Positions 14,241 to 63,069 of a stretch of DNA of 64,000 nucleotides are shown in pieces. A program made the position numbers and the translations under genes. Positions within the stretch are counted from its first letter, which is position 1, and the number at the start of each line of letters is the position of its first letter. The stretch is from an uncultured Armatimonadetes bacterium (GTDB lineage Bacteria > Armatimonadota > UBA5829 > DTJY01), in contig OY970325.1 of the NCBI GenBank assembly GCA_963717145.1, forward strand, positions 4,480,001 through 4,544,000. The letters are read 5' to 3'. A model generated the notes under the pieces. That model was not told the origin of the DNA and ran no database searches. It saw only the letters and a list, made by a program, of their open reading frames with translations.

Positions 14241-14338
14241 CGGGGGAGGTGTTGGGTGTTGGGTGTTGGGGGTTGGGGACCTGGAACCGTCAGCCCTGAG
14301 TGCGCCGTCATTCACCAGGCGCACTCAGGGCTGACGGT
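14241..14338. repeat. GGGTGTT tandem repeat plus short CCTGAGTGCGCC palindrome
   Basis: (gggtgtt)n at about 14247-14278; accgtcagccctgagtgcgcc...ggcgcactcagggctgacggt at 14286-14338. Confidence 0.8.
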
Positions 14339-14365: not shown

Positions 14366-16496
14366 CTATCTCCGATGTGCCTGGTATGCGTCCAACTGCG
14401 CCTTGATCCGTGCGGATAGATCCGGATCCCTCGCCAGTGCGAGGGCCTTCCGGGCGGTGATGACGGCATCATCCCAACGGCTGGCGGACGCATAGGCGGC
14501 GGCGAGGGTATCGAGGTACTGAGGATTGCTGTTCCCCGTGGCTTGACATACCTGCTCGGCAAGACGGACGGCCTCCTTCGAGTCGCGGGCGGTCGCGCCT
14601 GGAACAGTGGCGAGGAACCATGCGAGGTTGTTCTGCGCCTCGGGCCAATTCGGGCGGAGTTCCAGCGCCTTCCTGCATTCCACGATGGCCTCCCTGATCC
14701 TGTTCTTCTGCGCCGAGCCCTATCGCCAGGTTGTAGTGCCCATCGGGGAGGCTGGGATCGGCCTTCACCGCCTTGATGAACTGCTCGAGCGATTCGTCGA
14801 GCTTTCCCTGGAGCGAGTATGCCATCCCGAGGTTGTTGTGGGCTTGGGCGTAGTCCGGTCGAACCTGCACTGCCCGCCGGAGGTTCTCGATGGCGCGGAG
14901 CAGATCATCCGTCTGCATGAGGATCGTCCCCAGATTGTTGAGCGCCTGAGCGTGGTTCGGATCGAGAGCCAGCGTCTTCTCGAACTCCGAGACAGCGTCG
15001 GGAATATCGCTCTTTTCCAGCAGCGCTGCCCCAAGGCTGTAATGCGCATCCGCCCAGCCGGGATTGGCATCCACCGCGCAGTAATGGTGCCGGATCCCCT
15101 CATCCAGGTTTCCGTCCGCGATGAGCGCGAGCCCGAGGTTGTTCTCGGCCACGGCGTTGTTCCTGGTGACGGCGAGCGCGTGTCGGAACAGCGTCTCGCT
15201 GTCGTGCCAGTATCCGACCTGCCGCCACGTGATCGGGAGCAGGACGGCGATGACGAGGATGGAGAGTATGGGAGTATGGGGGTGTGGAGGTGTGGGAGTA
15301 CGGGAGTCCGGACGCCCATACTCCCACACTCCCATACTCCCATACCCTAACATCAGAAACACTCCGATCAGCGGGATGTACGTATATCGGTCCGCCATCG
15401 CCTGCATCCCGACCTGCACCAGGCCGATGACGGGAAGCAGCGTGATGACGTACCAAAGCCATCCCACCAGAAGATGCGGCCGACTGCGCGCCGACCGGAT
15501 CACGAGCGCGGTGATGCCGATCAGCAGAATTCCTGATCCGATCACCTGCCAACCTGGGAGGCTGCTCCCGGGATGTGGGTAGAACACGGCCAGCTTCGTC
15601 GGGTAGACCGTCTTCACGAGATAGGCGACGTATGCGACCAGAGCGTTGGCGATCCGGACACCGAGCGGATAGTGCTCCAGCGAACCGACCGCGAGTCCCC
15701 GGTGTTGGGCGGCGAACGTGACGATCCCCGAGGCCACCGCCATCCCGATGAGTGGCATCTTCTCGTAGATGACACCGATCACCGTAGGGGAGGCCTTCAA
15801 CGGCCTCCCACCCTCCGGCCGGCATTCCGTAGGGGTGGGCTTCGACGCCTGCCCGGCGGGAGGTCGTTGAAGGCCTCCCCTACGGGATATGCCGAGCCGC
15901 TGCAATGGCCAGAAGTCGAGCAGCAATAGGATGAACGGCAGCGTCACCAGCATCGGCTTGCACATCAGGCCGAGTGCAAATGCGACTACGACCGGGATGT
16001 ATCGCCTCACACCCGGGCGCTCCGTGTACCTCACGTACAGGAGCATCGTCAGCATCCAGAAGAATCCGCCGAGCACGTCTTTCCGCTCGGCAACCCACGC
16101 CACCGATTCCACGTGCAGCGGATGAACGGCGAACAGCGCCGCGACGAATGCGCTTGTCCAGATGAGGCCGGTCATGCGCCGAAGGACCAGGAAGAGAAGG
16201 ATGACGCTCGCGATGTGGATCAGCAGGTTCACGGCGTGAGGGCCGGCCGGATTCATGCCGAAGAGCCGGTAGTCGATCATGTGGGAGATCCAGGTCAACG
16301 GATGCCAGTTGGCCTCACGGAAGGTGGTGAATGCCCACGCGATGTCCAGCGACCGGATGTGCGGGTTGGCGGTCACATAGTCATCGTCGTCGTAGTTGAT
16401 GAACTGACTCCCGATCACCTGCCAAAACGCGGCGAGCGTGACGACAGCGAGCATCAGGCATATCAGAATGACCAGTCTGCGATCAGTCATCGCCAT
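14366..16496 (-). CDS. TMTC-like membrane glycosyltransferase with C-terminal TPRs; 1-nt frameshift near 14714
   Basis: YDDDDYV, NWHPLTWISH, HPLHVESVAWVAERKDVL, ADRYTYIP; repeated NNLG TPRs; last TPRs continue in ORF 14366-14683. Confidence 0.88.
15267..15345. repeat. Inverted pair of GGGAGTAT / ATACTCCC tandem repeats in frame in the TPR gene
   Basis: Translated GYGSMGVWEYGRPDSRTPTPPHPHTPI between two TM helices. Confidence 0.85.
15782..15885. repeat. GTAG-type REP doublet in frame in the TPR gene
   Basis: ccgtaggggaggccttcaacggcctccc...gggaggtcgttgaaggcctcccctacgg with a third degenerate GTAGGGG unit inside. Confidence 0.9.
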
Positions 16497-23867: not shown

Positions 23868-24183
23868 GGTGAGTAATCAGTTATCAGTTGTCAGTCATCA
23901 GTGAACAGTGAACGGTAAGTAAGCCGTTCGTGCCGGAGTTGTACTCCGGCACGCTAGACTAACCACCTAACGTTCGCACCGGAGTTGTACTCCGGTGCGC
24001 CGAGCTAGCAGGGGAGTTGCACTCCCCCACACACCGAACCGTGCGGAGTACAACTCCGCGGCGAGTTGCGCGGGCTGGAGTACAACTCCAGCCCGAACGT
24101 ATCGTCCTGCGGGAGGGAGTACAACTCCAGCCCGAACGTAGCGCTTATCGTCCTGCGGGAGGGAGTCCAACTCCCTCCCGAAC
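23868..24183. repeat. ATCAG(T) tandem repeat followed by a cluster of about 7 GGAGTTGNACTCC hairpin units
   Basis: First three units in one orientation (GGAGTTG(T/C)ACTCC), the rest inverted (GGAGT(A/C)CAACTCC, several ending CGAAC). Confidence 0.85.
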
Positions 24184-32987: not shown

Positions 32988-33004
32988 ATGTCCTCCGGAG
33001 ATAC

Positions 33005-33051
33005 ACTACTCCATCACTCCACTACTCCCACACTCCCACACTCCCATACTC
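33005..33051. repeat. ACTCC(C)A tandem repeat
   Basis: actactccatcactccactactcccacactcccacactcccatactcc. Confidence 0.8.
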
Positions 33052-33054
33052 CGC

Positions 33055-45390: not shown

Positions 45391-45616
45391 CCGTAGGGGC
45401 GGTGCTTCTACGCCCGCCCGAGACGGGAGGCCGTTGAAGGCCTCCCCTACGGCACGAGCCGAGACGGGAGGCCGTTGAAGGCCTCCTCTACGGCACGAGC
45501 CGAGACGGGAGGCCGTTGAAGGCCTCCTCTACGGCACGAGCCGAGACGGGAGGCCGTTGAAGGCCTCCCCTACGGCACGAGCCGAGACGGGAGGCCGTTG
45601 AAGGCCTCCCCTACGG
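45391..45616. repeat. REP tandem array: one degenerate GTAG unit, then five 41-bp inverted units
   Basis: gagacgggaggccgttgaaggcctcc(c/t)ctacggcacgagcc at 45420, 45461, 45502, 45543, 45584 (last lacks the linker). Confidence 0.93.
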
Positions 45617-46985: not shown

Positions 46986-48302
46986 GTGGCAAAGGAAAGG
47001 CTGTCAGAGCAAGAAATACATAAACTCCTGGCCGAGTATCTGAAGGACGGCGATATACGCCTCCGCGATCAGGTGGTCCATCAGTACCGCAACCTCGTGG
47101 AGAGCATCGCCCGTCGGTTCGCCAATTCGGCGGAGCCGCTGGAAGACCTTGTCCAGGAGGGGTATATCGGCCTGATCATCGCGGCCGACAGGTACAACGG
47201 CGATAAGGGGGTGAAGTTTTCAACTTACGCCACCCACTTCATCATCGGCCAGATCAAGCACGCGCTCAGAGACCGCGGCAAGATCATCAAGGAGCCTGCC
47301 TGGCTGCAGGAACTGAACTACAGGATGGATGGAGTGATCAACGCTCTCTACCAGGAACTCGGCCGTCAGCCGACGGACACCGAGATCGGGCGAGTCATGC
47401 ATCTCCCCGAGGAGCAGGTGGCGGGTCTCCTGACGACGCGCGAGGTCTTCAAAGTCACATCGCTCGATCTGGATCCGGACGAGAACTCGAACAGCGGAGT
47501 GGATCTGGACAAGGTGAAGGACGACAAGTGCACCACCTTCCAGCTCCCCATCGAGGACAAGATCGTTCTCGAGACGGCGATGGACAAGCTCAAGATCATC
47601 GAGCAGAAGGTCATTCAGGAGTCCTACTACACGGGTTTGAGCCAGACGGAGATCGCAAAGGCGCTCGGCATCTCCTGCAACTATGTTTCCCATATCCTCC
47701 GGAACGGTACCAAGAAGCTCAGGCGGATACTGATCACCGAGGAAGTGAAGGAGACTCAGGTCCAGCGACAACTCGCCAGCCGCAGGTCCGACAAGACCGC
47801 AGAGGACATGGAGTCGGCGGTCGTGGACGCCGTGACCGGGCTATATACCGCCGCGTACATATCCGAACGTCTGCAGGAAGAGGTGAGCCGCGCCTCGCGT
47901 GCCCACGCAGAGCTGTCGTTTGCGATCCTGGCAGTCGATGACTTCGAGGAGTTCAGGAGCAGGTGTGGTCTGATGCGCACGGAGGATATCCTGTACGCGA
48001 TGACGGGCATTCTCAAAGAGGCGGTCCGCAAGTGTGACATCATCGGCAGGCTCGGAGATGCCGAGTTTGCGCTGATCATGCCGTATACCGGTCAGCAGAG
48101 CCGCAAGGTCTGCGCTCGTGTCTGCAAGGCGCTCACTCAGGCCACATTCGAAACGACGAGGAATGCCCCGGCGGCGCAGTTCGAAGTCCACTCCGGCTGC
48201 TCGGTGTATCCGTCCGACGCGCGATCGGCCCGCAAGTTGATCTCGTTGGCGCGAACGGAACTGGAAAGGGTCATCCCGATCGAGCTTCCCAAGGCGGCTT
48301 AG
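46986..48302 (+). CDS. SigB/F/G-like sigma-70 factor fused to a degenerate GGDEF domain
   Basis: DLVQEGYIGL, KFSTYA..IIGQIKHALRD, LGRQPT, LSQTEIAKALGISCNYVS; then DAVTGLY...RKCDIIGRLGDAEF...SGCSVYP. Confidence 0.88.
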   Translation: MAKERLSEQEIHKLLAEYLKDGDIRLRDQVVHQYRNLVESIARRFANSAEPLEDLVQEGYIGLIIAADRYNGDKGVKFSTYATHFIIGQIKHALRDRGKIIKEPAWLQELNYRMDGVINALYQELGRQPTDTEIGRVMHLPEEQVAGLLTTREVFKVTSLDLDPDENSNSGVDLDKVKDDKCTTFQLPIEDKIVLETAMDKLKIIEQKVIQESYYTGLSQTEIAKALGISCNYVSHILRNGTKKLRRILITEEVKETQVQRQLASRRSDKTAEDMESAVVDAVTGLYTAAYISERLQEEVSRASRAHAELSFAILAVDDFEEFRSRCGLMRTEDILYAMTGILKEAVRKCDIIGRLGDAEFALIMPYTGQQSRKVCARVCKALTQATFETTRNAPAAQFEVHSGCSVYPSDARSARKLISLARTELERVIPIELPKAA

Positions 48303-48381
48303 GGAATGGTTGATGGCTGATGGGGAATGGTTAATGGCGGAGCATCCCCCATTAACCATTCCCCATCAGCCATCAACCATC
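48302..48381. repeat. Inverted ATGGTTG / CCATCAA heptamer repeats between convergent genes
   Basis: atggttgatggctgatggggaatggttaatgg...ccattaaccattccccatcagccatcaaccat. Confidence 0.85.
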
Positions 48382-49158
48382 AGATGTCATGTCCCACCAC
48401 TCGCGGAGCTTGTCACGGCTGTGGTAGAGATACTCGCGATCGCCCGCGAAGACCTCCAGAGTGATCGTGCGGTCATATCCCACACGCTTCAGGATGTGAA
48501 TCACCCACTTCCAGTCGATCTTCCCGACCCCCAGTGGCAGATGCAGGTCGAGGTTGCCGCCGTTGTTGTCCGAGAAATGCACGTGTCGGAGTCTGTCGGC
48601 GAAAAGCGATGCCAACTCAACGGTCATGTTGTGCTCGTTCTCGAGGTTCGCGTGACCGACGTCGAGGTGGAATCTGAGGTCCGGCACGGCTGCGAAGACC
48701 TCTGACAGGTCTCTGGGCGAGTTGAAATTCGGCGGCATGTTCTCCAGCATCAGTTCGAGGCCCGACTCTCGTGCCTTCGCGCTGAGGTGGCGAAAAGCGT
48801 CGATGTTGGACTCCCGGATCCAGCGGTTATCGTGGAGCGGCGCCCGGATGAATGGATGGATGTTGACGAACTCGGTCCCCAGTTCGCCGAAGATCAGGAT
48901 GTCACGCTCGATCTCCTGTATGGCCGCCTCACGAACCTCGGGCATCGGAGTCGCGATCGGCAGGTAGTACGCGGTGTGGCCGACGATCCCGAGCCCGGCA
49001 TCCTCCAGCGCTCTCTTGACATCCGGCACCGAAAGCGTGCCCGAGTACGCCTTCTGCGGCTCGAGCGTCAGGTCGATGAAATCGAACCCGGCGTCGGCGA
49101 AGGATCGGATCTCACCGACTACGTCGTGCATCGGATGGTTCATCGCACCGATTCGCAT
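48373..49158 (-). CDS. Sugar phosphate isomerase/epimerase family protein
   Basis: GFDFIDL, LMLENMP, HLDVGHA, HVHFSDN..DLHLPLG, ITLEVF. Confidence 0.88.
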   Translation of the reverse strand: MRIGAMNHPMHDVVGEIRSFADAGFDFIDLTLEPQKAYSGTLSVPDVKRALEDAGLGIVGHTAYYLPIATPMPEVREAAIQEIERDILIFGELGTEFVNIHPFIRAPLHDNRWIRESNIDAFRHLSAKARESGLELMLENMPPNFNSPRDLSEVFAAVPDLRFHLDVGHANLENEHNMTVELASLFADRLRHVHFSDNNGGNLDLHLPLGVGKIDWKWVIHILKRVGYDRTITLEVFAGDREYLYHSRDKLREWWDMTSDG

Positions 49159-50470: not shown

Positions 50471-53017
50471 ATGAAACTCATCCCTTTGATCTTTGCACTG
50501 ACCATATCCGCCGTCGCGGCCCAGGATCTATCGAACGGCCACTTCCAACTTCATGCGCAGAATGGCTGGTTCGACGTGATGCGGTTCGATCCGTCCGGTA
50601 AGGGCAAGTATGGCGACAATCTGATCAAGGCACTGTACATCGGCGAGAAGCCGGATGGGAATCGCCGACTGGAGTCGCCTCCCACATCAGAGGGGAACAG
50701 CCTGTCCTTCCGCGGCCTTCCGGTCCGAAGCCCATACACGGTCGAGCACACCGACAGCTCGCATCCCTTCCAACTCACCCCCGGCACGACTCTCGGCGCC
50801 AAGTTCACGGTCAAGTCCGGGAAGATCACCCGCGCGGGCGGCAAGTTCCCGACCTGGGGCGAGCCCGATTCCGCCTGCACGCTCTCGATCTACCGCCTCC
50901 CGGACGGCGACATGGCGAAGAAGGAACTGGTCGTCGCCCGCAAGCTCACCGGCATCGCGGACAACAGCATGCGGTCGATCGACTTCGATCCGCAGCCCGC
51001 CGGGGTGTTCTACCTCGAGATGTCCGGGCACACGGGCAAGACGATCGGATGGTGGGGCGCGCAGAAGGACATGGACCCCTCGATGACCGCCATCATCGAC
51101 GGCAAGGAGGAGCCGGGATCGGACCTCGCGCTCACGTACTCCGGCTTCGATGAGGTCACCGGCGACTGGACCGTCACGCTGAACGCCGGCAACCTCAAGA
51201 GCACATTCAGCGGCGGAAATGTGCCACTCGTGATCGTAACGCCCTGGGAGAAGGCCGGCTACGATCTCTCCAAGTTCCCGTTCAGCCGGTTCTACACCGA
51301 TACCGGCCGACACGTGATCCCGCAGCAGTGGAAGCGCAGGCCGTCGAACGGCATCCAGCACGGCAACTGGGTCTATGCCATGGGGAAGAAGAACTACGAT
51401 CTGCGGTTCAACCTCAACGGACAGCATCTCTCCTGGGAGTTCACCGACGACGAAGCGCGGTGGAAGTTCGACCTCTCGGCTCTCGACATCGACCTCCTCC
51501 CGCACACGGATGCGCTCCCCAACTACTATCCCGTCTTCTACTCGTCCGACAAGAAGACCACCGATGTGGTGAACGAGTTCTACTACAGCCATGGTCTCAA
51601 CTTCGGGGTCGGTACTCCGCCGGACTGGAAGGAATGGCAGGCGCTCATCCTCGACTGGACCGACAGCCCGCAGACCGTGGAGCAGCGCGGTCACTTCACC
51701 GGTGTCCAGATGCGCGACGACGGGTACGTCCGATCCTGGGGCGCGGACGACGGCTGGCCGTTCCCCTACAAGGACGAGGACAAGGACGGCAAGAACGACT
51801 ACGATACGCGCCACTTCACGACCAACTCATGCATCATCCTCGGCGCATACCGATACTTCGTCTGGAAGCGGGATGTCGATTTCCTCAAGGAGATGATGCC
51901 GAAACTCCGTCTGATGAACGAGTTCAACCTGAACGACCTTCACGGCAGGGACGGCATCATCGTGATCGACGCCAAGGGTCACGAGGGCAGGCACGACGGC
52001 ATCGGGAGCAACTACTGGGACATCCTGCCGTTCGGGTACAAGGACGCCTTCTGCAACTCCTACTACTATGCGTCGCTCAAGGCGATGGGCGACCTCGAGC
52101 AGTTCTGTATCGACCAGGGGCTCGATCTCCCCGGCGAGAAGCGGACTCCCGCGTTCTACACTAAGCTCCGCGACCGGGTCCGGCTCTCATACAATCGGAC
52201 GTTCTGGGATGACGCCAAGGGCCGATACGTCGGCTGCGTCGATATCGACGGCGTGAAGCACGACTACGGCTTCACCTTCGTGAACGTCGAGGCGATGGCC
52301 TACGACCTTGCGGACAAGGCGCAGGTCGAGCGGGTCTACAAGTGGATGGAGACCGAGCCGACCTCTACCGGCAAGCCCGACACCTACTCCGCCTGGATCT
52401 TCGCCCCCCGCGCGAACACGATCCACAACCCTCCCAGGGAGGGAAATCCGAAATCCGAAATCCGAAATCCGAAATCAGCGCCCCCCTGGTGGTTCTTCGG
52501 CTGGAGCGGCACTCCCTATGGCGATCAGTGCCAGGACGGAGGCGCGATCCTCTACACGTCCGGCTACGACATCATCGCCCGTGCGAAGTATCTCGGCGCG
52601 GACAATGCGTACAAGCGGCTGACCGAGATGCTTGGCCGATACAATATGCCCGACCGCCTGATGGGCGGCAACCCGCTCGTCACCGGCGAGAACTCGCAGG
52701 GTGGGGGAAACGGCGCGGGCTCGGTCGGAGTCGAGGGCGAGTTCCCCGAGAGCGGCCTCGCACCGGCGTCGTACCTCTACGCGTTCCTCGGCATCGACGC
52801 GGATATCACTGGGATGAGGATCAAGCCGAACCTCCCGTCGAACGTCAAGTATGCCGGCGTCCGAAACCTCTCCTACGCCGGCACGAGGTACGACATCAAG
52901 GTCACCAAGGACTCGGTCGAGATCACTCCGCTCACCGTCGTGAACCCGACCACCATCAAGCGCAAGCTCAAGCCCGGCGAGACATTCCTCCTCGCCCCGG
53001 GGATGGTGAACAGATGA
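50471..53017 (+). CDS. Secreted six-hairpin glycoside hydrolase-like protein
   Basis: Signal peptide; YRYFVWKRDVDFL, NYWD..PFG.KDAFCN.YYY, YNRTFWD..KGRY, QDGG; adjacent sugar ABC gene. Confidence 0.72.
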   Translation: MKLIPLIFALTISAVAAQDLSNGHFQLHAQNGWFDVMRFDPSGKGKYGDNLIKALYIGEKPDGNRRLESPPTSEGNSLSFRGLPVRSPYTVEHTDSSHPFQLTPGTTLGAKFTVKSGKITRAGGKFPTWGEPDSACTLSIYRLPDGDMAKKELVVARKLTGIADNSMRSIDFDPQPAGVFYLEMSGHTGKTIGWWGAQKDMDPSMTAIIDGKEEPGSDLALTYSGFDEVTGDWTVTLNAGNLKSTFSGGNVPLVIVTPWEKAGYDLSKFPFSRFYTDTGRHVIPQQWKRRPSNGIQHGNWVYAMGKKNYDLRFNLNGQHLSWEFTDDEARWKFDLSALDIDLLPHTDALPNYYPVFYSSDKKTTDVVNEFYYSHGLNFGVGTPPDWKEWQALILDWTDSPQTVEQRGHFTGVQMRDDGYVRSWGADDGWPFPYKDEDKDGKNDYDTRHFTTNSCIILGAYRYFVWKRDVDFLKEMMPKLRLMNEFNLNDLHGRDGIIVIDAKGHEGRHDGIGSNYWDILPFGYKDAFCNSYYYASLKAMGDLEQFCIDQGLDLPGEKRTPAFYTKLRDRVRLSYNRTFWDDAKGRYVGCVDIDGVKHDYGFTFVNVEAMAYDLADKAQVERVYKWMETEPTSTGKPDTYSAWIFAPRANTIHNPPREGNPKSEIRNPKSAPPWWFFGWSGTPYGDQCQDGGAILYTSGYDIIARAKYLGADNAYKRLTEMLGRYNMPDRLMGGNPLVTGENSQGGGNGAGSVGVEGEFPESGLAPASYLYAFLGIDADITGMRIKPNLPSNVKYAGVRNLSYAGTRYDIKVTKDSVEITPLTVVNPTTIKRKLKPGETFLLAPGMVNR
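52443..52476. repeat. (GAAATCC)n heptamer repeat in frame in the hydrolase
   Basis: Four full copies plus one partial; translated NPKSEIRNPKS. Confidence 0.88.
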
Positions 53018-54672
53018 GAACGAAGGCCGTCATTCTGAGCGCAGTGAAGAATCTGGCCCTGCCGAGACGCCAGATTCTTCACTGCGTTCAGAATGACAGC
53101 CTCCCACGCCGGTTCTCCTCCGGATCCTTGGCGGTCTTGGCGTCTTGGCGGTTCCATAGGCCCCAGGCGACTGAAGTCACGGCAACAAGTGCACGAAGTG
53201 TCCCTGCGGACACTGGAGATCCCAGTCCACGCAGGTGGACTTCGTGCATTTGTTGCCGTGACTTCAGTCGCCTGGTGCTCTGGCTCATCCTGACCACTCT
53301 CCTGCTCCCCGGCTGCTCCCACCCGCCTAAGGACACCCGCGTCCACCTGCGATTCAGCATCCTCGGCGTGAAGCAGGAGACCGAACTCGCCAACGCCCTC
53401 GTGAGGGGCTTCGAGGCAAGCCACCCGGGCATCAAGATCGATGTCGAACCGGTCGCCGGGATGGGCTACGACATCAAGCTCATCATGCAGTCCGCGTCCG
53501 GCACGCTCCCCGACGTGCTCTTCCTCGCCGACTCGCTCGTCCCGACGTTCACCAAGTACAACGTCGTCCGCGACCTGAACGAGTTCATCAAGGACGACCC
53601 CGAGTTCCCGATCGACGACATATATCCCCAGATGCTCGCCACCGGGATGGACAAGCAGGGGCGCATCTTCCAACTCCCCCGCGAGCTTGGCGTCGTCGTG
53701 ATGTTCTACAACCGCACGCTCTTCCGCAAGGCCGGGCTGCCCGACCCGCCGCCGGACTGGACCCACGAGGACTTCCTCCGCATGGCCCGGAAGCTCACGA
53801 TCTACGAGGGCGACCGGATGACCCCACCCCAGCCCTCCCCGCAACGGAGAGGGAGTCCACCGAGCAACCCCCTCTCCGTTGCGGGGAGGGCTGGGGTGGG
53901 GTCATCCGGTCGCATCATCCAATACGGGTTCACCGCCGGATACACGTGGTGCGGGGTCTATGCGCCGTGGGTCGCATCGGAGGGCGGACGAGTGGTGACC
54001 AAGGACGGGAAGTGGGCCGCGTTCAGCTCGCCGGAATCGATCAAGGGGCTGAAGAACCTCATCGAACTCGTCACCGTGGAGAAGGTCGCGCTTCCGCCGA
54101 ACCGGAGCATCACGATCCCCGGCGTCGATCCGTTCGCGGCGGGGAAGATCGCCATGCAGCCGCAGGTCTTCCCGCAGGTGCCGCTCTACCGGGCGACGAT
54201 GAAGGACTTCGACTGGGACGTTCAGGTGATGCCCCGTGGTTCGGTGAGGCACGTCACGAACATGGGCGCGGCGGGATACGGCATGTCGACGAACACGAAA
54301 CACCCGAAGGAGGCCTGGGAGTTCCTGAAGTACATCGTCAGCCGCGAGGGCCAGACGATCCTCGCCACGTCCGGCAGCGGCATCCCGTGCCTGAAGTCGA
54401 TGGCGAACGACCCGGTCTGGCGCAGGCCCAATTCCGCTCCCCCATCAACCATGAACCATCAACCATCAACCATTCTGAACTATGATGCCTTCATCGACTC
54501 GGTGCAGATCGGCATGGGCTGGGACGACTTCCTCATCCTCACCCGCCCCGAGGTCCAGGACGCGGTCAACCAGGCCTTCGAGAAGTCGTTCCTCGGCAAG
54601 GCCACCATCGAGTCCGCCTTCAAAGAAGCCGACGCGAAGATCAACAAGGTGCTGCGGGAGACGAGCGACTAG
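53014..54672 (+). CDS. Sugar ABC transporter substrate-binding lipoprotein carrying five in-frame repeat inserts
   Basis: ATGA overlap with upstream stop; lipobox LLPGC; FEASHPGIKI, PDVLF, MFYNRTLFRKAGL, FAAGKIAM, EAWEFLKY. Confidence 0.9.
   Translation: MRTKAVILSAVKNLALPRRQILHCVQNDSLPRRFSSGSLAVLASWRFHRPQATEVTATSARSVPADTGDPSPRRWTSCICCRDFSRLVLWLILTTLLLPGCSHPPKDTRVHLRFSILGVKQETELANALVRGFEASHPGIKIDVEPVAGMGYDIKLIMQSASGTLPDVLFLADSLVPTFTKYNVVRDLNEFIKDDPEFPIDDIYPQMLATGMDKQGRIFQLPRELGVVVMFYNRTLFRKAGLPDPPPDWTHEDFLRMARKLTIYEGDRMTPPQPSPQRRGSPPSNPLSVAGRAGVGSSGRIIQYGFTAGYTWCGVYAPWVASEGGRVVTKDGKWAAFSSPESIKGLKNLIELVTVEKVALPPNRSITIPGVDPFAAGKIAMQPQVFPQVPLYRATMKDFDWDVQVMPRGSVRHVTNMGAAGYGMSTNTKHPKEAWEFLKYIVSREGQTILATSGSGIPCLKSMANDPVWRRPNSAPPSTMNHQPSTILNYDAFIDSVQIGMGWDDFLILTRPEVQDAVNQAFEKSFLGKATIESAFKEADAKINKVLRETSD
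53029..53275. repeat. Three stacked repeat elements in frame at the SBP N-terminus
   Basis: GTCATTCTGAGC palindrome 53029-53097; CTTGGCG repeat 53127-53155; ccaggcgactgaagtc...gacttcagtcgcctgg palindrome 53163-53275. Confidence 0.9.
53810..53913. repeat. CCCTCCCC..GGGGAGGG palindrome in frame in the SBP
   Basis: About 45-bp inverted arms; translated MTPPQPSPQRRGSPPSNPLSVAGRAGVGSS. Confidence 0.9.
54442..54473. repeat. (CCATCAA)n repeat in frame in the SBP
   Basis: ccatcaaccatgaaccatcaaccatcaaccat, translated PSTMNHQPSTI; same unit as 48360-48381. Confidence 0.85.
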
Positions 54673-57419: not shown

Positions 57420-57452
57420 GTGGACGATATGATGAAAAGGAGGAACACAAGC

Positions 57453-58522
57453 ATGTTACGAAAAGCGATACATCTCATAGGGATCGTTCTCCTGCTGACC
57501 CTGCTGGCGTCCAGTTTGTCGGCACAAGTGCCGAGGACGATCTCCTACCAGGGCCGTCTGACGAACGACACCGGCACTCCACTGAACGCCACGTATTCCA
57601 TCACCTTCAGCCTCTACGATGTTGCCACCGGAGGCACGGCGCTGTGGTCTGAGACAAAGGATGTTGCTGTCTCCCAAGGGCTACTATCAACCGCTCTTGG
57701 AGACACCGCGCCTTTCGGAGACACGATCGCTTTCGACCGGCCATACTTCCTTGGGCTCAAGTTGGGATCCGGGGACGAGATGACTCCACGCCAGCCGTTT
57801 CAGAGTGCACCGTATGCATTGGCATTGCCGGGGGTAACCGTGGACGCCGATGGCAATGTCATATTCACTGGCAGCACTCCAAAGCATATCATCTGCGATG
57901 GCGGGAGTGTAGGGATCGGTACAACAGCCCCTCAGTCGCGATTGCACGTAGCAGGTGGCGATGTCAAAGTGCAGAATGGTGGCAATAATGCTGGAGAAGG
58001 GGGAGCCGTATTTCTCTGCGCCAATCCCGGCTATGCGCCAGGCGCAGGCATGCAGTTCGGCTTGGAGTTTGCGGGCGACGGCGTCGATTCTGGATTCTTG
58101 CGATTTCTTACAAGGTCATCACATACTTCGCCGCTGGTCGAGCGCGTGCGCATAACAAGCGGAGGCGATGTTGTAATCGGCAATGCCGTCTCCTGTGGGA
58201 CACTCACCCTCACTTCCTCCCGGCGCTTCAAGGATGATGTTAAGCCCATCGGGAACCCCTCGATACCATCAGCAAGCTCCAGGGTGTGAGCTACAACTGG
58301 GACGAGAAGCATGGCGGTAAGCCAGACATGGGATTCATTGCTGAGGACGTGGCGAAGGTGCTCCCGGAACTGGTGACCATGGAAGCAGACGGCAAGAACG
58401 CCGTCGGCATGGACTACACCCACCTCATGGCCCTCGCCATCGAAGGCATCAAGGCCCAGCAAGAGGAGATCACGGCGCTCAAGGCTCGCATCAACGTCCT
58501 TGAGCAGGCAGCGGCTAAGTAG
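57453..58522 (+). CDS. Secreted S74 fibre protein (paralog 2); 1-nt frameshift near 58258
   Basis: Same architecture; aacccctcgatacc has 4 C where paralog 3 has 5 C (59801). Confidence 0.85.
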
Positions 58523-58555: not shown

Positions 58556-60085
58556 GTGTTACGAAAAGCGATACATCTCATAGAGATCGTTCTCCTGCTG
58601 ACGCTGCTGGCGTCCTATGGTTGGGCACAAGTGCCGAGAACGATTTCCTACCAGGGCCGTCTCACGAACGACACCGGCGCTCCACTGGACGGCACATATT
58701 CGATCACCTTCAGCCTCTATGACGTTGCCACCGGCGGCACGGCACTGTGGTCTGAGATGAAGAGCATTTCCGTTTCCCAAGGGCTGTTCACAACGGCGCT
58801 GGGCAGCGGTACGGCTTTCGGAGAGGCTGTAGGTTTTGACACGCAGTATTTCCTGGGGGTGAAGGTCGGCACTGGTTCTGAAATGACCCCTCGCCAGGCG
58901 CTCCAAAGTGTACCCTATGCGCTCGGACTCCCAGGCATAACGGTGAGCCCTGCCGGTCCGATCACTGTGGACGTCGCCGGTACGGAGTACAGGTTTCGAC
59001 CTGCTTCCCTGGACTTAGCCATGGTGCCCGGTTCGACTCACTATCCGTATATCTCCTGGTATGATGGCGACGGCAGTCGTGGCGCCTACCTTGGTTGGGG
59101 CACTAAGAACAGCTCACTTGGGCTGACAATGAAGGACGGGGTGACCTTCGATATAGCTGGATCGATGGACATCAACGCCTCTGGAACGAGATACCTGTTT
59201 CATCCGGGCTGGATGACCCTTGCGAGTGCACCTGGCTCCACCCATTACCCGTTCATCGATTGGCTTGACACCGACGGCAATCGTGACGCATACCTGGGCT
59301 ATGGGACCATGAACAGCGTGCTGGAGCTCGAGATGAAGAGCGGCCTTCGGTTCCAGATCAATGGTCCTGTAAGCGTACTAGGTGGTGGCAACCTTGGCAT
59401 TGGAACCACTCAACTGACAGACAAGCTAGTCGTGGATCTAGGTGCCGGCCTCCCAGACGGGGGAATCACCATCAAGGGCACGAGCACTACAGCCGGCGAC
59501 ATCGGACTGAAGATAGCGAACACAGGCACTGGGGGGCGCAACTGGTATATAGATTCCACCAACAACTCAAGCGGCTACGGCGGCGGCAAACTTGCGTTCG
59601 TACAAGGCATTGGGAACGCCCCGTTGATGACTTTGGCCGATAACGGCTGTGTCGGAATCGGTACGGCATATCCAGGCAGGACACTGGATGTGAATGGAGA
59701 TGTCTACTTCCATAGCAACGTACTCGCGGGTAGCGTATCGTGTGGTGTCCTAACCCTCACTTCCTCCCGGCGCTTCAAGGATGATGTTGAGCCTATCGCG
59801 AACCCCCTCGATACCATCAGCAAGCTCCAGGGCGTGAGCTACAACTGGGACGAGGAGCACGGCGGCAAGCGAGATATGGGATTCATTGCCGAGGATGTGG
59901 CGAAGGTGCTCCCGGAACTGGTTACCATGGAAGCAGACGGTGAGAACGCGGTGGGCATGGATTACGCCCACCTGATCGCCCTCACCATCGAGGGCATCAA
60001 GGCCCAGCAGAAGGAGATCGAGGCGCTCAAGGCGGAAAATGCGGCCTTGGCAGGCGAGATTGAGAAACTGAGGACCAGCAGGTGA
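58556..60085 (+). CDS. Secreted S74 fibre protein (paralog 3)
   Basis: Same N- and C-terminal modules, different central domain. Confidence 0.88.
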   Translation: MLRKAIHLIEIVLLLTLLASYGWAQVPRTISYQGRLTNDTGAPLDGTYSITFSLYDVATGGTALWSEMKSISVSQGLFTTALGSGTAFGEAVGFDTQYFLGVKVGTGSEMTPRQALQSVPYALGLPGITVSPAGPITVDVAGTEYRFRPASLDLAMVPGSTHYPYISWYDGDGSRGAYLGWGTKNSSLGLTMKDGVTFDIAGSMDINASGTRYLFHPGWMTLASAPGSTHYPFIDWLDTDGNRDAYLGYGTMNSVLELEMKSGLRFQINGPVSVLGGGNLGIGTTQLTDKLVVDLGAGLPDGGITIKGTSTTAGDIGLKIANTGTGGRNWYIDSTNNSSGYGGGKLAFVQGIGNAPLMTLADNGCVGIGTAYPGRTLDVNGDVYFHSNVLAGSVSCGVLTLTSSRRFKDDVEPIANPLDTISKLQGVSYNWDEEHGGKRDMGFIAEDVAKVLPELVTMEADGENAVGMDYAHLIALTIEGIKAQQKEIEALKAENAALAGEIEKLRTSR

Positions 60086-60138
60086 GCTACAACTAGCGTA
60101 CCTACCTCAAGTCAGACCAGGTAACCTGGAGGCTCATC

Positions 60139-60984
60139 ATGGACAGATCATCCACTACGAACAGATATCGCTTTGTTGTGAAATATGGCTACATCCTGCT
60201 TGCTATCATGTTGGGAAGTAGGGCCGTTGCTGCCACTATGCCCTCGGGTTTCAACTACCCGACTAGTGCAACATGGACGGATAACTGGAATTGGCTGGCG
60301 GCGGGAGGTGGCGATACGCCAAGCTGTGACGACGTGCTAAATGAGTATCTCTGTGGCAAATACCACCTGGGAAAAGACATCGGTGCAGCAGCAGGCGCTG
60401 ATGTCTATGCGGTTGGCCCGGGACGTATCGTGCATGATGGTACTGGGACAAGTGACGTGGAACAGAAGTTCATGTGGGTGGAATTCGATCTTTCCAGCGG
60501 TGGTCACTTCTATGTTGTTTACGGCCACGTGAACAGAACCAAACCAGGGAATGACGTTGCGAAAGGTGATGTGATTGCCACCATTGCAAGTTGGCCCGGC
60601 AACAACCATCTGCATTTCGGCATCCGACCGGACGGCTATATCACAAGTGGATGGGGCCGTGGAAGTATACCAGCCGGATGGAATGGTAACAAGAATGATC
60701 TGAACAAGAACGGTTTTGTAGGCCCATGGGATTACCTATCAACGCACCAGCCCGCAGGTACTGGCTGTATACCCAACGCTAGCGACATCTGGCTCGACTT
60801 CGGATGGGGCGGGCCCTATACCGGCTGCCAGCAGTCACCCTTCAGCAGCCTGACCACGGCGATCGACGCTCTCAACTCCGGTGGCATCCTGCACATCAGG
60901 CCCGGGTCTACATCATGGACCGGGACGATCTCCAAGCCGATGACCCTGCAGGCAGAGAGTGGGACGGTTACCATCGGCAACTGA
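60139..60984 (+). CDS. Secreted M23 family peptidase with small C-terminal domain
   Basis: HLGKD (HxxxD), VYGHV, HLHFGI (HxH); C-terminal G.QQSPFSSL..AI..L.SGG.LHI.PG. Confidence 0.85.
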   Translation: MDRSSTTNRYRFVVKYGYILLAIMLGSRAVAATMPSGFNYPTSATWTDNWNWLAAGGGDTPSCDDVLNEYLCGKYHLGKDIGAAAGADVYAVGPGRIVHDGTGTSDVEQKFMWVEFDLSSGGHFYVVYGHVNRTKPGNDVAKGDVIATIASWPGNNHLHFGIRPDGYITSGWGRGSIPAGWNGNKNDLNKNGFVGPWDYLSTHQPAGTGCIPNASDIWLDFGWGGPYTGCQQSPFSSLTTAIDALNSGGILHIRPGSTSWTGTISKPMTLQAESGTVTIGN

Positions 60985-61089
60985 CCCCGAAACGGTAGGA
61001 CGGCGGCTGTCACGCGGTGTATTTCGTGGCATACCTCCCCCCGTCGGCTGCCGGTGGGAGGATTGCGGTGCGATGGGCCTGGGGAAGTA

Positions 61090-61279
61090 TGCTACGGGCA
61101 GACGGGATTGTACTACAGACGGTCCGTAGTACAATCCAGATCTTCCGTAGTATCGCACGGGTGGTCAGTAGTATGCCCCAGGGCCGCAGTAGTATCACCC
61201 GGTAGCCCTGTAGTATCATCCGGCCGCTCCGTAGTACACCTCACCCGTCGCGTAGTATGCAATACCCCTCCAGCAGTAC
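61090..61279. repeat. 21-bp phased GTAGTAY array with unique 14-nt spacers
   Basis: GTAGTAY at 61126, 61147, 61168, 61189, 61210, 61231, 61252; GCAGTAC at 61273; inverted TACTAC at 61111 and TGCTAC at 61090. Confidence 0.9.
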
Positions 61280-61287
61280 CCGTTTCC

Positions 61288-61296
61288 TGCCATAAT
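61288..61296 (+). promoter_or_regulatory. Possible extended -10 element directly after the array
   Basis: TGcCATAAT. Confidence 0.4.
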
Positions 61297-61352
61297 GAGA
61301 ATGATTGCCGATTTCTGTCGCCGGGGAGACCGGCGGTGAGGAGATGGATGCC

Positions 61353-62021
61353 ATGTCCCGTGACTATATGCCGCATGCCGAGCACGAGTTGGCCGGGTGG
61401 GCGGACAAGTTCGTCGCCTTCGCCCAGGCGCATGCAGAAGATATCAGCCTGACCGAGGATGAGCTGACCGCACTTGTCAACGATCACGAGGCTTTCGATA
61501 GTGCCCGGAGCGAGTATGATGTCCTCGCTGCCCAGGCGCGTGGTGCGTGCAAGATGAAGAACCAAGCCCGCCGGAGTCTCGTCGACCGCATGAGGGAGAT
61601 CGCCATGCGCATCCAGACGAGCCCGGCGATCAACAATGGGGACCGGGCCTCCCTCGGGCTGTCGCTCGGTTTACCGAGGGAGCATGTTCCCCTCGAGTTC
61701 TCCGATGAGTTGCCGTATGCGGCGATCGACAGCTTCGGGCGGCTGAAGCACGTGCTCAGGATCACAAACAAGACCGAGAAGGGGTCGTCGAAGGCACGCC
61801 CGGGGAACGCGACCGGCTGCGAGGTCTGGGTGAAGGTCGGCGACTCGCCGTCGGGTCACGAAGAACTCAGGTATGTCGGAACGGCAACGGACGGATTGCG
61901 CGTCGTGGAGTTCTCGGCCGAGGACGGGGGGAAGAAGGCCTGGTACATGCTGCGGTGGGTCGGCCGCCGCTCGGCGGTGGGTTCCTGGAGTGGGACGTTC
62001 TCCGCGACGATCGCGGCGTAG
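61353..62021 (+). CDS. Hypothetical protein: N-terminal helical bundle + C-terminal FN3-like beta domain
   Basis: GAGGAG RBS; DYMP..E.EL..WADKF helical region ending RASLGL; ARPGNATGCEVW..., AWYMLRWV....VGSWS C-terminus; no signal peptide. Confidence 0.8.
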   Translation: MSRDYMPHAEHELAGWADKFVAFAQAHAEDISLTEDELTALVNDHEAFDSARSEYDVLAAQARGACKMKNQARRSLVDRMREIAMRIQTSPAINNGDRASLGLSLGLPREHVPLEFSDELPYAAIDSFGRLKHVLRITNKTEKGSSKARPGNATGCEVWVKVGDSPSGHEELRYVGTATDGLRVVEFSAEDGGKKAWYMLRWVGRRSAVGSWSGTFSATIAA

Positions 62022-62029
62022 GAGGAAGG

Positions 62030-62078
62030 TTTCGGGTTATGGGTTGCAGGTTATGGGGAACCAATAACCTGCAACCTC
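62030..62078. repeat. GGGTTAT / GGTTGCA inverted heptamer repeats (possible bidirectional terminator)
   Basis: ggttgcaggttat...ataacctgcaacc between convergent genes. Confidence 0.65.
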
Positions 62079-62098
62079 GTGTCCGATTCCACGTCGGA

Positions 62099-62551
62099 TC
62101 ACTCGGCGGCGAAGAAGGCTTCCAGTTCCGTCTGAAGCCTGTCCAGCGTTTCCTCGCAGTGGAGCACGAGGTCGGACATCTTGCGCCATTTCACCTCGGT
62201 CGTGTACGCATGGCGGAACATGTGGCGGAAGTCCAGATAGTAGCGGAGTCGCAGGCGGAGGTCGTCGGAGATAACAGGCGGTCGGAGATCGGTAGGTTGC
62301 GCCATCAGCCCAAGCAGGGCGGCATGCGAAGACAACCCTGATGGAAGCGAATCGTCTATCTCCTCTGCGACACGCTTGAAGATATTCTCGATGCCTGTGT
62401 AGAACGAATGGAGCATGGCCGCCAGGGCGCTCATCTCCACGTAATCGGGTTCGGACGCTCGTACCTTTTCCAGGAGCGGGCGAAAGGAATCCAGCAACTC
62501 CCGAAGCATTGCGAGTTCGAGGTTGGCTCTCTTCTGCGTCTTAGGCCACAC
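62099..62551 (-). CDS. HEPN / HepT-like ribonuclease toxin
   Basis: LHSFYTGIENIFKRVA, SHAALL..M, FRHMFRHAY (RxxxxH). Confidence 0.88.
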   Translation of the reverse strand: MWPKTQKRANLELAMLRELLDSFRPLLEKVRASEPDYVEMSALAAMLHSFYTGIENIFKRVAEEIDDSLPSGLSSHAALLGLMAQPTDLRPPVISDDLRLRLRYYLDFRHMFRHAYTTEVKWRKMSDLVLHCEETLDRLQTELEAFFAAE

Positions 62552-62822
62552 GGACCAACTCCCCTTCCTCTTCGATAAAGCGCGTGAAGAGGTTGTTATC
62601 ATCCAGGTCCACGAGATCAAAGAGGCGCTGGATGGCATCGCCCACCTTGCTCATTGTGGGGAAGAACTTCTCAGGCGGAAGGCCACGAATCGCGATGTCT
62701 ATATCCGAGTCAGGCCTCATCTTGCCGTGGGCGGCCGATCCGAAGACGTAGACTTCGGTCGCTCCCTCCTCGCGGAGTATCCGTGCGGCTGTTTCGATGT
62801 CATTCTTGACGGCGTCATTCAT
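62541..62822 (-). CDS. Minimal nucleotidyltransferase (MNT) antitoxin
   Basis: VYVFGSAAHG....SDIDIA, FDLVDL. Confidence 0.9.
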   Translation of the reverse strand: MNDAVKNDIETAARILREEGATEVYVFGSAAHGKMRPDSDIDIAIRGLPPEKFFPTMSKVGDAIQRLFDLVDLDDNNLFTRFIEEEGELVRVA

Positions 62823-63069
62823 GGCAGATCGCTGCCTCCACTCGCTCGTTCAGATCAATCCCATCAACCTCAGGAATCTCGTGCCCTTTCCGCAGGCCGA
62901 CGAGCAGCCAACTCTCCAAGACCTCGCGGAGAGATTCCCTGCACTGCTCGAGGGTATCACTCTCAGCCCACACGCCCTGCAGACCTGGGATCTCCCCCCA
63001 GAAGGGCCCGTTCTCCATTATCTCGTAATGCGCGTGGCTCATTGCGCGCTCGATATATCGTGTCAGCAT
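62815..63069 (-). CDS. HicB-like antitoxin
   Basis: MLTRYIERAM..A.YE, FWGEIPGLQGVWAESDTLEQC, GHEIP. Confidence 0.85.
   Translation of the reverse strand: MLTRYIERAMSHAHYEIMENGPFWGEIPGLQGVWAESDTLEQCRESLREVLESWLLVGLRKGHEIPEVDGIDLNERVEAAICHE

Follow-up and report, generated by a model that had tools for sequence, protein, structure and literature searches.

The window considered here, the whole 64,000-nt stretch of contig OY970325.1 (positions 4,480,001 to 4,544,000, forward strand) from an uncultured Armatimonadetes bacterium, carries near its right end an array of short sites spaced at exactly 21 bp, followed by a gene for a 222-amino-acid (222-aa) protein of an unnamed family; the array, this gene and the counterparts of both in other genomes are the subject of this analysis. 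The features of the locus, in window coordinates, are as follows:

61029–61066, plus strand: hairpin CCTCCC ... GGGAGG (15-nt arms, 80% paired), 3' of the upstream M23 peptidase gene and forming the left boundary of the intergenic region
61084–61095, both strands: leftmost degenerate units, GAAGTAT (plus, 61084–61090) overlapping GTAGCAT (minus, 61089–61095)
61105–61137, no strand assigned: perfect 12-bp inverted repeat GGATTGTACTAC / GTAGTACAATCC, from an inverted-pair search
61126–61258, plus strand: seven GTAGTAY units with differing 14-bp spacers
61273–61279, plus strand: eighth unit, GCAGTAC, 11 bp before a −10-like hexamer (its position relative to a promoter is presumed)
61288–61296, plus strand: TGcCATAAT, extended −10-like element (consensus match only)
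61338–61343, plus strand: GAGGAG, Shine-Dalgarno-like, 9 nt before the ATG
61353–62021, plus strand: gene for the 222-aa protein
62042–62076, plus strand: hairpin GGTTGCAGGTTAT ... ATAACCTGCAACC with a 13-bp stem and no T-run, just past the stop codon (read from the sequence)

The motif GTAGTAY begins on the plus strand at 61126, 61147, 61168, 61189, 61210, 61231 and 61252, in steps of exactly 21 bp, and is followed next by the degenerate GCAGTAC; the first-pass annotation had given this succession from the letters of the sequence, and on re-reading its positions proved exact. Of 13 GTAGTAY occurrences in the window, 8 fall within 61110–61258, and 100 dinucleotide-preserving shuffles averaged 2.72 and never exceeded 7, so that none came to 13. 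No other 21-bp-phased array is present in the 64 kb, judged by any 6-mer with four or more occurrences at one constant period between 7 and 79. Each unit conserves 7 of its 21 bp, an invariant 7-bp core among diverged 14-bp spacers. The array had also been described as flipping at its left end, and the perfect 12-bp inverted repeat on which that description rested is indeed there (GGATTGTACTAC at 61105–61116 against GTAGTACAATCC at 61126–61137, with 9 bp between the arms and a minus-strand GTAGTAC at 61110–61116 inside it); the further inverted copy, placed at 61090, lies instead at 61089–61095 and departs from the motif by one mismatch. The plus-strand GAAGTAT beside it likewise has one mismatch and is in phase with the main array. 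GTAGTAC is a 3+1+3 palindrome in its own right, so the orientation of the "flip" is set by the flanks. The eight 14-nt spacers all differ, as had been noted, and the CC(A/G)G said to sit mid-spacer is found only partly, as (C/A)C(A/G)G at spacer positions 4–7 in five of the eight units; the 3x7 substructure proposed from it has no backing beyond this weak motif. A search of the spacers for phage or host origins, which had been suggested, came back empty: no spacer matches the rest of the window over 11 nt or more, and the array region (61060–61352, 293 bp) has no match in phage and plasmid collections. The Rfam 15 covariance models likewise gave 0 matches at E<=1 in window positions 60000–63000. 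GCAGTAC ends 11 bp before the −10-like hexamer, which would put the eighth unit within the presumed core promoter; the succession of a TGnCATAAT element and a 222-aa open reading frame (ORF) is as first described, and a strict sigma-70 scan makes no call at TGcCATAAT because its −35 region is poor. A terminator scan listed no terminator at the 62042–62076 hairpin.

The arrangement recurs in other genomes. A scan of genome contigs with a 10-sequence alignment yielded 44 loci (L numbers below) in Acidobacteriota (mostly Pyrinomonadaceae), Cyanobacteriota (Hormoscilla), Bacteroidota, Planctomycetota, Verrucomicrobiota, Armatimonadota, BRC1 and unclassified metagenome-assembled genomes (MAGs), and array and gene are found paired in seven or more bacterial phyla, the motif changing from one case to the next. 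In 11 loci exact 6-mers mark 21-bp-phased arrays within ~500 bp upstream of a homolog, and the motif is particular to the locus (array motifs include AAGATG in L007, GCGGGT x10 in L011, CGGCGG x9 in L033, CCCCGG x11 in L034 and GTCCGG x9 in L039), and Tandem Repeats Finder (TRF) reports arrays of period 21, 42 or 63 upstream of homologs in many further loci. As a statistic we counted the columns identical over five consecutive units, at periods 9–45, over the 700 bp preceding the gene, and set the threshold at five or more invariant columns at period 21; L016 and L041 were left out, having too little upstream DNA. Twenty-eight of the 42 testable loci reach this threshold, with 5–18 units each, and in all 28 the periods 21 and 42 score highest; the window has 9 such columns. 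Among control 700-bp segments of the same loci and the window, the threshold was attained by 6 of 552 (odds ratio 182, Fisher p = 8e-32), and of these six one is the displaced array of L012 and at least three score through a stronger repeat with a different period (L020, L028, L039). The proposal that array and protein form a two-part module had implied phased arrays beside the homologs, and these are what the loci show, each with a motif of its own. Gene models bear the same imprint: six metagenomic homologs are annotated with 46 aa or more of additional N-terminal sequence, and in five of them its top periodicities are 7, 14 or 21 aa, because these models read through the upstream 21/42-nt array.

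What these arrays share is their geometry. Cores differ from locus to locus and the 21-bp period alone is kept, also among paralogs: L033, L035 and L040, within one MAG, have different cores, as do L011 and L015 on one Hormoscilla chromosome, and the arrays of L035 and L040, whose products are sister proteins on the tree, read CGTTAAGCTTAACGG and GGAGCGGCGG...CGCTCC. Orthologous arrays are still recognisably alike (L031/L034, L006/L014 and L005/L012). In L011 a 1-nt loss is offset by a 1-nt gain between units, such that the cores stay 21 bp apart, and copy number varies among relatives (7.2 in L015 vs 5.3 in L017; ~14 in L034 vs ~9–10 in L031). Two candidates for a common core were discarded: a "GGA"-type, CsrA-like word, which is frequent in G+C-rich DNA and lies on the other strand in L020, and GANTC or other restriction-site-like cores, which are present in several arrays but not universal.

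Units occur in both orientations, and in the same phase, in L001 (CGAAGGCA/TGCCTTCG), in L009 and L014 (GACTCCCGCTAGTC/GACTAGCGGGAGTC) and likewise at the left end of the window array, and palindromes occur in many units, as in L035 (a perfect 14-mer), L039 (GTCCGG-N5-CCGGAC) and L034 (CCCCGGAA..TTCGGGG). Such in-phase flips would be tolerated by a two-fold symmetric DNA binder and not by a sequence-specific RNA motif, which favours DNA as the level at which the array is read. A relaxed scan covered 22 loci: nine have a sigma-70-like site in the stretch that separates the array from the gene, three have one inside the array itself, and one has it in the 200 bp preceding the array. Five Acidobacteria loci have in common an A-tract, TTGnnn, a gap of 17–18 bp and TATCAT (TATTAT in L006, TATCTT in L033), 100–150 nt before the start codon, and in L009 the strict tool returns TTGATG-18-TATCAT as its sole match in 1.2 kb, where 0.0 would be expected. 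For the window and L033 a sigma-54 promoter 3' of the array was also considered and, on inspection by eye, rejected.

The 222-aa protein has no Pfam family and only a sub-threshold NCBIfam match. A word-index search found three close relatives (68–77% identity), all from short metagenomic contigs, and a profile of four close homologs found no relatives in the genome contigs; an exhaustive profile search delimits a family of 2242 representative clusters (50% identity clusters) at E<=1e-3 and 712 at E<=1e-10, nearly all members being ~220 aa long and every one carrying the source name "hypothetical protein". An Atlas search returned unnamed clusters only. When 101 members were compared with Pfam, no consistent family emerged: 91 families were matched at E<=1, the 25 listed among them each hit at most two of the 101 members, and none of those 25, even at this loose cutoff, is a ribbon-helix-helix or helix-turn-helix (HTH) family. 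NCBIfam matched none of the 101; four PHROGs families matched one member each, which we take as noise; PADLOC matched none of 12 members; a translated search of phage and plasmid collections (tblastn) gave no protein match; a PDB sequence profile search gave nothing below E=0.07; and no long fused forms were found, which is weak evidence. The window protein also has a 221-aa paralog, P0212, 34% identical to it; the only strong match of P0212 in the window is the 222-aa gene, at that 34% identity, so the gene for P0212 lies elsewhere.

The AlphaFold2 model of the protein (101-row alignment; predicted local distance difference test, pLDDT, 95.5; predicted template modelling score, pTM, 0.70) has an N-terminal helical hairpin (helices 10–26 and 35–89) and a C-terminal FN3-like beta sandwich (120–219), in keeping with the helical-bundle/FN3-like protein that had been read from the translation. 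The seven-strand sandwich is that of the FN3 fold and the Pfam fn3 model is unmatched; the assignment is one of fold and says nothing about function. Foldseek against the PDB retrieved generic FN3 domains only (best E 4.4e-4, target-normalised template modelling score 0.55–0.66, ~105–118 columns), and against viral models it retrieved FN3-bearing tail and fibre proteins. The median isoelectric point (pI) of the FN3-like domain is 8.8. The first-pass annotation had called for an oligomer prediction. The result is a predicted homodimer with two-fold symmetry, joined through the helical half of the protein, and its interaction score (ipSAE) is 0.71 against 0.00 for the best control. This mark was attained by 20 of 30 proteins whose structures were solved as pairs, compared with 1 of 23 whose structure was solved as a single chain, counts that are only a rough guide because the present prediction used its own alignment. 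The dimer runs agree in at least 86% of contacts, with a partner pLDDT of at least 82, and the predicted interface covers residues 5–104 in antiparallel arrangement, residue 62 against residue 62. Such an antiparallel two-fold dimer fits near-palindromic sites. Estimated from helix geometry (55 residues x 1.5 Å), the sandwich domains of a dimer would stand ~80 Å apart, close to the 71 Å that a 21-bp unit spans.

The reading that we favour, tentatively, is that array and gene constitute a conserved two-part module in which the array is bound, in the manner of iterons or an operator, by the dimeric product of the adjacent gene. The array would then be a row of short, often near-palindromic protein-binding sites in double-stranded DNA, lying directly upstream of the gene's own promoter (and in the window running into it); a spacing of 21 bp is two helical turns, so that all sites fall on one face of the helix. 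The binder would be a dimer whose long N-terminal helices hold the two subunits together and whose two ends each bear a mildly basic FN3-like domain. Its loading on the array might be cooperative, by analogy with Rep on iterons and ParR on parC, each paralog recognising a private motif, and the outcome would probably be autoregulation, a stable nucleoprotein structure or both. Protein binding to the array, the identification of the binder with the product of the adjacent gene and the purpose of such binding are each presumptive, and polymerisation of the protein on the DNA, a further possibility, is suggested by the predicted homodimer together with the absence of any other linked conserved gene. 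With no other gene consistently linked, the family member is the only gene always present at the arrays. Additionally, in L005, L012 and L014 the promoter and 5' untranslated region stay by the gene (similarity to L006 ends just upstream of the −35), and the orthologous array lies 1.3–3.5 kb further upstream, behind different inserted genes, with array and gene both intact; that both are kept though separated fits a trans-acting pair. The inserts, and the different cargo of a related locus, are:

L005 (1366–4995), between array and gene: IS1595 transposase and DUF7689
L012 (2424–4995), between array and gene: Fic and XRE
L014 (3515–4995), between array and gene: membrane protein
L022 (3701–4995), related Pyrinomonadaceae locus with different cargo between array and gene

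In these related Pyrinomonadaceae loci the array edge looks like an insertion hotspot.

Several observations count against binding by the adjacent product. The protein has no recognisable DNA-binding domain by Pfam and NCBIfam on 101 members or by fold searches, its family has a near-neutral pI (median 7.1) and its helical half is acidic (5.7). Fourteen of the 42 testable loci stay under the threshold; L015 and L017 have 43-bp units and L036 42-bp units, L005, L012, L014 and L022 carry the array 1.1–3.5 kb upstream (TRF), L021, L026 and L032 are weak, and L010, L025, L043 and L044 give no array signal (L025 and L043 being partial genes and L044 a marginal match). Joint divergence of motif and protein would be expected from shared descent by itself, and differing motifs are therefore no proof of co-evolution. 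The strict promoter tool makes no call in L040 or in the window, so that promoter placement rests on relaxed matches. Many arrays have strong hairpin potential (z down to −19), and L018 and L039 contain variants that are G-U compatible on the sense strand only. Lastly, in L006, L012 and L022 the product of an XRE-type HTH gene could be the binder instead.

The last of these points belongs to the main rival, unlikely in our judgement yet the most serious one, in which the array is a cis-regulatory promoter element and the gene merely its target, the array being recognised by some regulator or nucleoid protein whose gene lies elsewhere, or acting through in-phase intrinsic bending, and the protein having nothing to do with DNA. 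The position of the array directly upstream of promoter-like elements with an A-tract suits this account, as do a two-turn phasing like that of known multi-site operators and a neutral protein without a known DNA-binding fold. So does the presence of XRE HTH genes beside the array in three loci and of a MarR gene in one; these four are, however, the only ones with a known DNA-binding domain among 58 small ORFs beside arrays (XRE in L006, L012 and L022; MarR in L042). The three XRE-type proteins are homologous, 92–105 aa long and differently arranged (L006 4249–4527, L012 3141–3458, L022 3969–4253). No regulator gene is consistently linked: all-against-all clustering of the flanking ORFs shows no neighbour common beyond close relatives, and the Pfam matches among 88 neighbours are a mixture of housekeeping proteins, Collar-domain fibre proteins, restriction-modification, TIR, ParE, Fic and transposases. 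Paralogs in one cell with different cores make a single host factor unlikely, and L033, L035 and L040, all from one genome, would need separate factors with genes elsewhere. Bending alone leaves the invariant 7-bp core among diverged spacers unexplained, and in L005, L012 and L014 the promoter remains by the gene while the array, 1.3–3.5 kb off, persists as well.

Two further observations concern the homolog loci themselves. Heptamer tandem repeats (AGGGAAC, AACTCAG, AGATTTC and AGGGGT-type) adjoin several homologs, beside or in place of the 21-bp array:

L015, 4823–4881
L017, 4841–4879
L029, 3934–3964
L039, 5673–5748
L016, 626–680

The homolog is interrupted or truncated (by a frameshift or as a partial match) in L020, L024, L025, L028, L036 and L043, which could reflect pseudogenes or MAG assembly errors, and the array is still present in L020, L024, L028 and L036 despite the broken homolog.

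An array that is transcribed, its RNA partnering the protein as tandem small hairpins or as fixed and variable units with a scaffold, sponge or guide-like role, appears improbable to us. Fold potential is strong in many arrays, with z from −5 to −19 on the plus strand in 13 of 24. When these 24 were folded on both strands, the plus strand was the more stable in 13, the minus strand in 9 and 2 were ties, an inconsistent strand preference, and the arrays of L007, L022 and L027 fold no better than shuffles. The sense-strand G-U compatible variants of L018 and L039 would suit an RNA, as would the resemblance of the window's fixed 7-mer and variable 14-mer to guide arrays, and short-period arrays bound unit by unit are known from TIGR (PMC12045711) and, in the available text of its description, VIPR (10.64898/2026.10.21.760802). 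The arrays of L007, L011, L018 and L039 are nevertheless nearly uniform, with no variable segment; the window spacers are not matched over 11 nt or more elsewhere in the window, nor is the array region in phage and plasmid collections; and Rfam finds nothing in the window region, its only matches across 14 loci being a tRNA and a group II intron that both lie outside the arrays. Promoter-like sites fall downstream of the array (9 of 22 loci) rather than upstream (1 of 22). Taken together, the in-phase flips, the unstructured arrays, the lack of strand bias and the downstream promoters speak for DNA sites over RNA or coding sequence, and we favour arrays that act as double-stranded DNA upstream of a promoter. 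Transcription of the array followed by processing to 21-nt RNAs, as had been suggested, is disfavoured by the same promoter positions and flips, by the absent strand bias and the three unstructured arrays, and by the scant variable part of several arrays.

Less probable still is a functionless minisatellite or recombination hotspot that lies upstream of the gene by chance. Variable copy number among relatives (L015 against L017, L034 against L031), the different insertions at the array/promoter junction in L005, L012 and L014, and a window genome rich in short tandem arrays are what such an account would lead one to expect; the same period upstream of the same family in at least seven phyla (odds ratio 182), the invariant core amid diverged spacers and the compensated shifts that hold the 21-bp spacing are not.

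Least credible of all is a coding role. One plus-strand frame (61054–61452) and one minus-strand frame are open across the window array, and the former reads the motif as GTA GTA, with GTA at 14 of 14 valine codons; over 24 window ORFs GTA makes up 57 of 886 valine codons (6.4%), and 14 of 14 under ordinary usage has p ~2e-17, so the constraint acts on the nucleotide sequence. The motif is thus free of synonymous drift and the overlapping heptad ORFs look incidental, both as the first-pass annotation had supposed. An array encoding a heptad-repeat peptide, as an upstream ORF or an N-terminal extension, could draw on the open frame present in 28 of 29 arrays (a count that is uninformative, since short G+C-rich repeats give open frames by chance), on variable positions 9, 15 and 21 of L007, which are third codon positions of KMSEAKP repeats, and on certain database gene models that run through arrays, but it is hardly tenable in the face of the GTA usage, of units reverse-complemented while in phase, of L001, which has no open frame, and of a window ORF (61054–61452) that begins in the upstream hairpin and overlaps the 222-aa gene out of frame.

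Among known systems, the module of array and adjacent protein comes nearest to plasmid iterons with their Rep initiators (pPS10, R6K, RK2, F), whose units are 17–22 bp long and recur at a period of ~22 bp. Here too tandem sites about two helical turns apart adjoin the gene of the presumed binder, with inverted copies at one end (in iteron systems near the promoter) and an element-specific sequence, and the period is an exact 21 bp over 7+1 units in the window and 5–18 units in the 28 positive loci. In contrast to Rep, the adjacent protein lacks a winged-helix fold and any Pfam or NCBIfam match, its model being a helical hairpin plus FN3; the chromosomal context is varied, the flanks are often housekeeping genes and there are no plasmid or phage matches (the longest contig in the cluster record of the window protein measures 5.37 Mb, at odds with an autonomous replicon); and only 7 of 21 bp are conserved in the window. 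In the type II and III partition centromeres, parC/ParR of R1 and pSK41 and tubC/TubR, tandem repeats are likewise phased and placed immediately upstream; in those systems they reach into the promoter of an operon whose product is the dimer that binds them, loads cooperatively and autoregulates. The geometry of repeats overlapping the promoter fits the window, where the last unit is 11 bp before the −10-like element, and the Acidobacteria loci, these promoters being consensus matches only; unlike those systems, there is no ParM, TubZ or ParA-type NTPase and no consistent neighbour (Pfam on the 88 flanking ORFs), and the hairpin-plus-FN3 protein has no detected ribbon-helix-helix or HTH. Direct-repeat operators with ~21-bp spacing, such as those of LytTR regulators (AgrA/ComE), AraC/XylS half-sites, the ARG boxes of ArgR and F1–F3 of OmpR, also have sites about two helical turns apart that end next to the −35 region; they comprise 2–4 sites, whereas the arrays here have 5–18 units, and no such regulator gene is linked at the loci.

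CRISPR-Cas and TIGR-Tas resemble the window in alternating fixed short repeats with variable segments beside a partner gene. CRISPR repeats of ~25–36 nt with like-sized spacers and cas genes differ from a 7-bp core with 14-bp spacers, and no Cas or defence-model matches were found here; the periods of CRISPR arrays are given as 60–79 nt in the available text of 10.64898/2026.10.21.760802. TIGR-Tas arrays, as set out in the available part of PMC12045711, have two alternating 8–12-nt repeats with 9-nt spacers in 36-nt units and a Nop-domain Tas protein, whereas here the period is 21, the core is single and the protein has no Nop or other Pfam domain. Unlike either, many of the present arrays lack variable segments and lie upstream of a promoter-like site. 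The exclusion of both systems made from unit size at the outset therefore holds, unit size and partner protein both being different. We conclude that the module does not qualify as a member of the CRISPR or TIGR systems nor, because of the protein fold, the missing NTPase or replicon context and the absence from plasmids, of the iteron/Rep or ParR/parC systems. The literature searched did not describe it: the periodic intergenic array classes of 10.64898/2026.10.21.760802 have periods of 5, 7, 8, 10, 18 and 60–79 nt, with no 21-nt class in its section 2.3 and 0 occurrences of "21-nt", "21 bp" or "21-bp" in the available text, supplements aside; terms for such arrays have 0 occurrences in 10.64898/2026.09.15.751765; and full-text literature searches found no description of this gene beside 21-bp arrays.

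If the pairing is functional, it would give a testable role to a new family (2242 clusters at 50% identity, E<=1e-3, all unnamed) and add a conserved non-coding element that is defined by geometry, two helical turns, and not by sequence, for which reason it would be missed by sequence-motif searches and RNA family libraries. It would also constitute a natural set of orthogonal protein–site pairs, perhaps useful as parts, and it makes the joint divergence of array motifs and binders after duplication within one genome testable (L035 vs L040). A bolder version, which we regard as doubtful, sees in these loci a widespread and so far unrecognised chromosomal protein–DNA class, in which a new family of proteins that bind DNA sequence-specifically, each an antiparallel helical dimer with two Ig/FN3-like domains, would polymerise on a private, iteron-like phased "bar code", paralog–array pairs would be orthogonal, the filament would serve beyond autoregulation (as a heritable switch, chromosomal anchor or insulator), and the array edge would be a landing site for inserted genes. 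Should the protein not bind, there would still be an unusually strict, phylum-spanning promoter-upstream architecture in need of explanation.

Elsewhere in the window, positions 15255–15345 and 48305–48383 have the architecture of the period-7/8 "beads-on-a-string" clusters as these are described in the available text of 10.64898/2026.10.21.760802. Further tandem arrays with 7–8-bp units (e.g., GAAATCC x4.9 and CCATCAA x4.6) occur at:

1382–1410
1843–1875
14248–14277
23872–23913
33004–33052
52443–52476
54442–54473

The stretch 45418–45616 consists of 4.9 copies of a 41-bp unit, 98% identical and each with the hairpin GGGAGGCCGTTGAAGGCCTCCC, and a related single copy lies just before 12355; the repeat looks like a REP-like (repetitive extragenic palindromic) element. 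Directly downstream of the 222-aa gene, 62099–63069 on the minus strand encodes a HepT-like toxin/MntA-like nucleotidyltransferase antitoxin pair and a HicB/UPF0150-like gene. At 57420–58522 on the plus strand, the middle one of three fibre-like genes is split into ORFs of 289 and 78 aa with a 4-base overlap, cutting its Peptidase_S74 chaperone domain, through either a frameshift in the gene or a sequencing error. Finally, 46986–48302 on the plus strand encodes an unusual fusion of sigma-70 regions 2, 3 and 4 (residues 31–246) with a GGDEF diguanylate cyclase (278–428).

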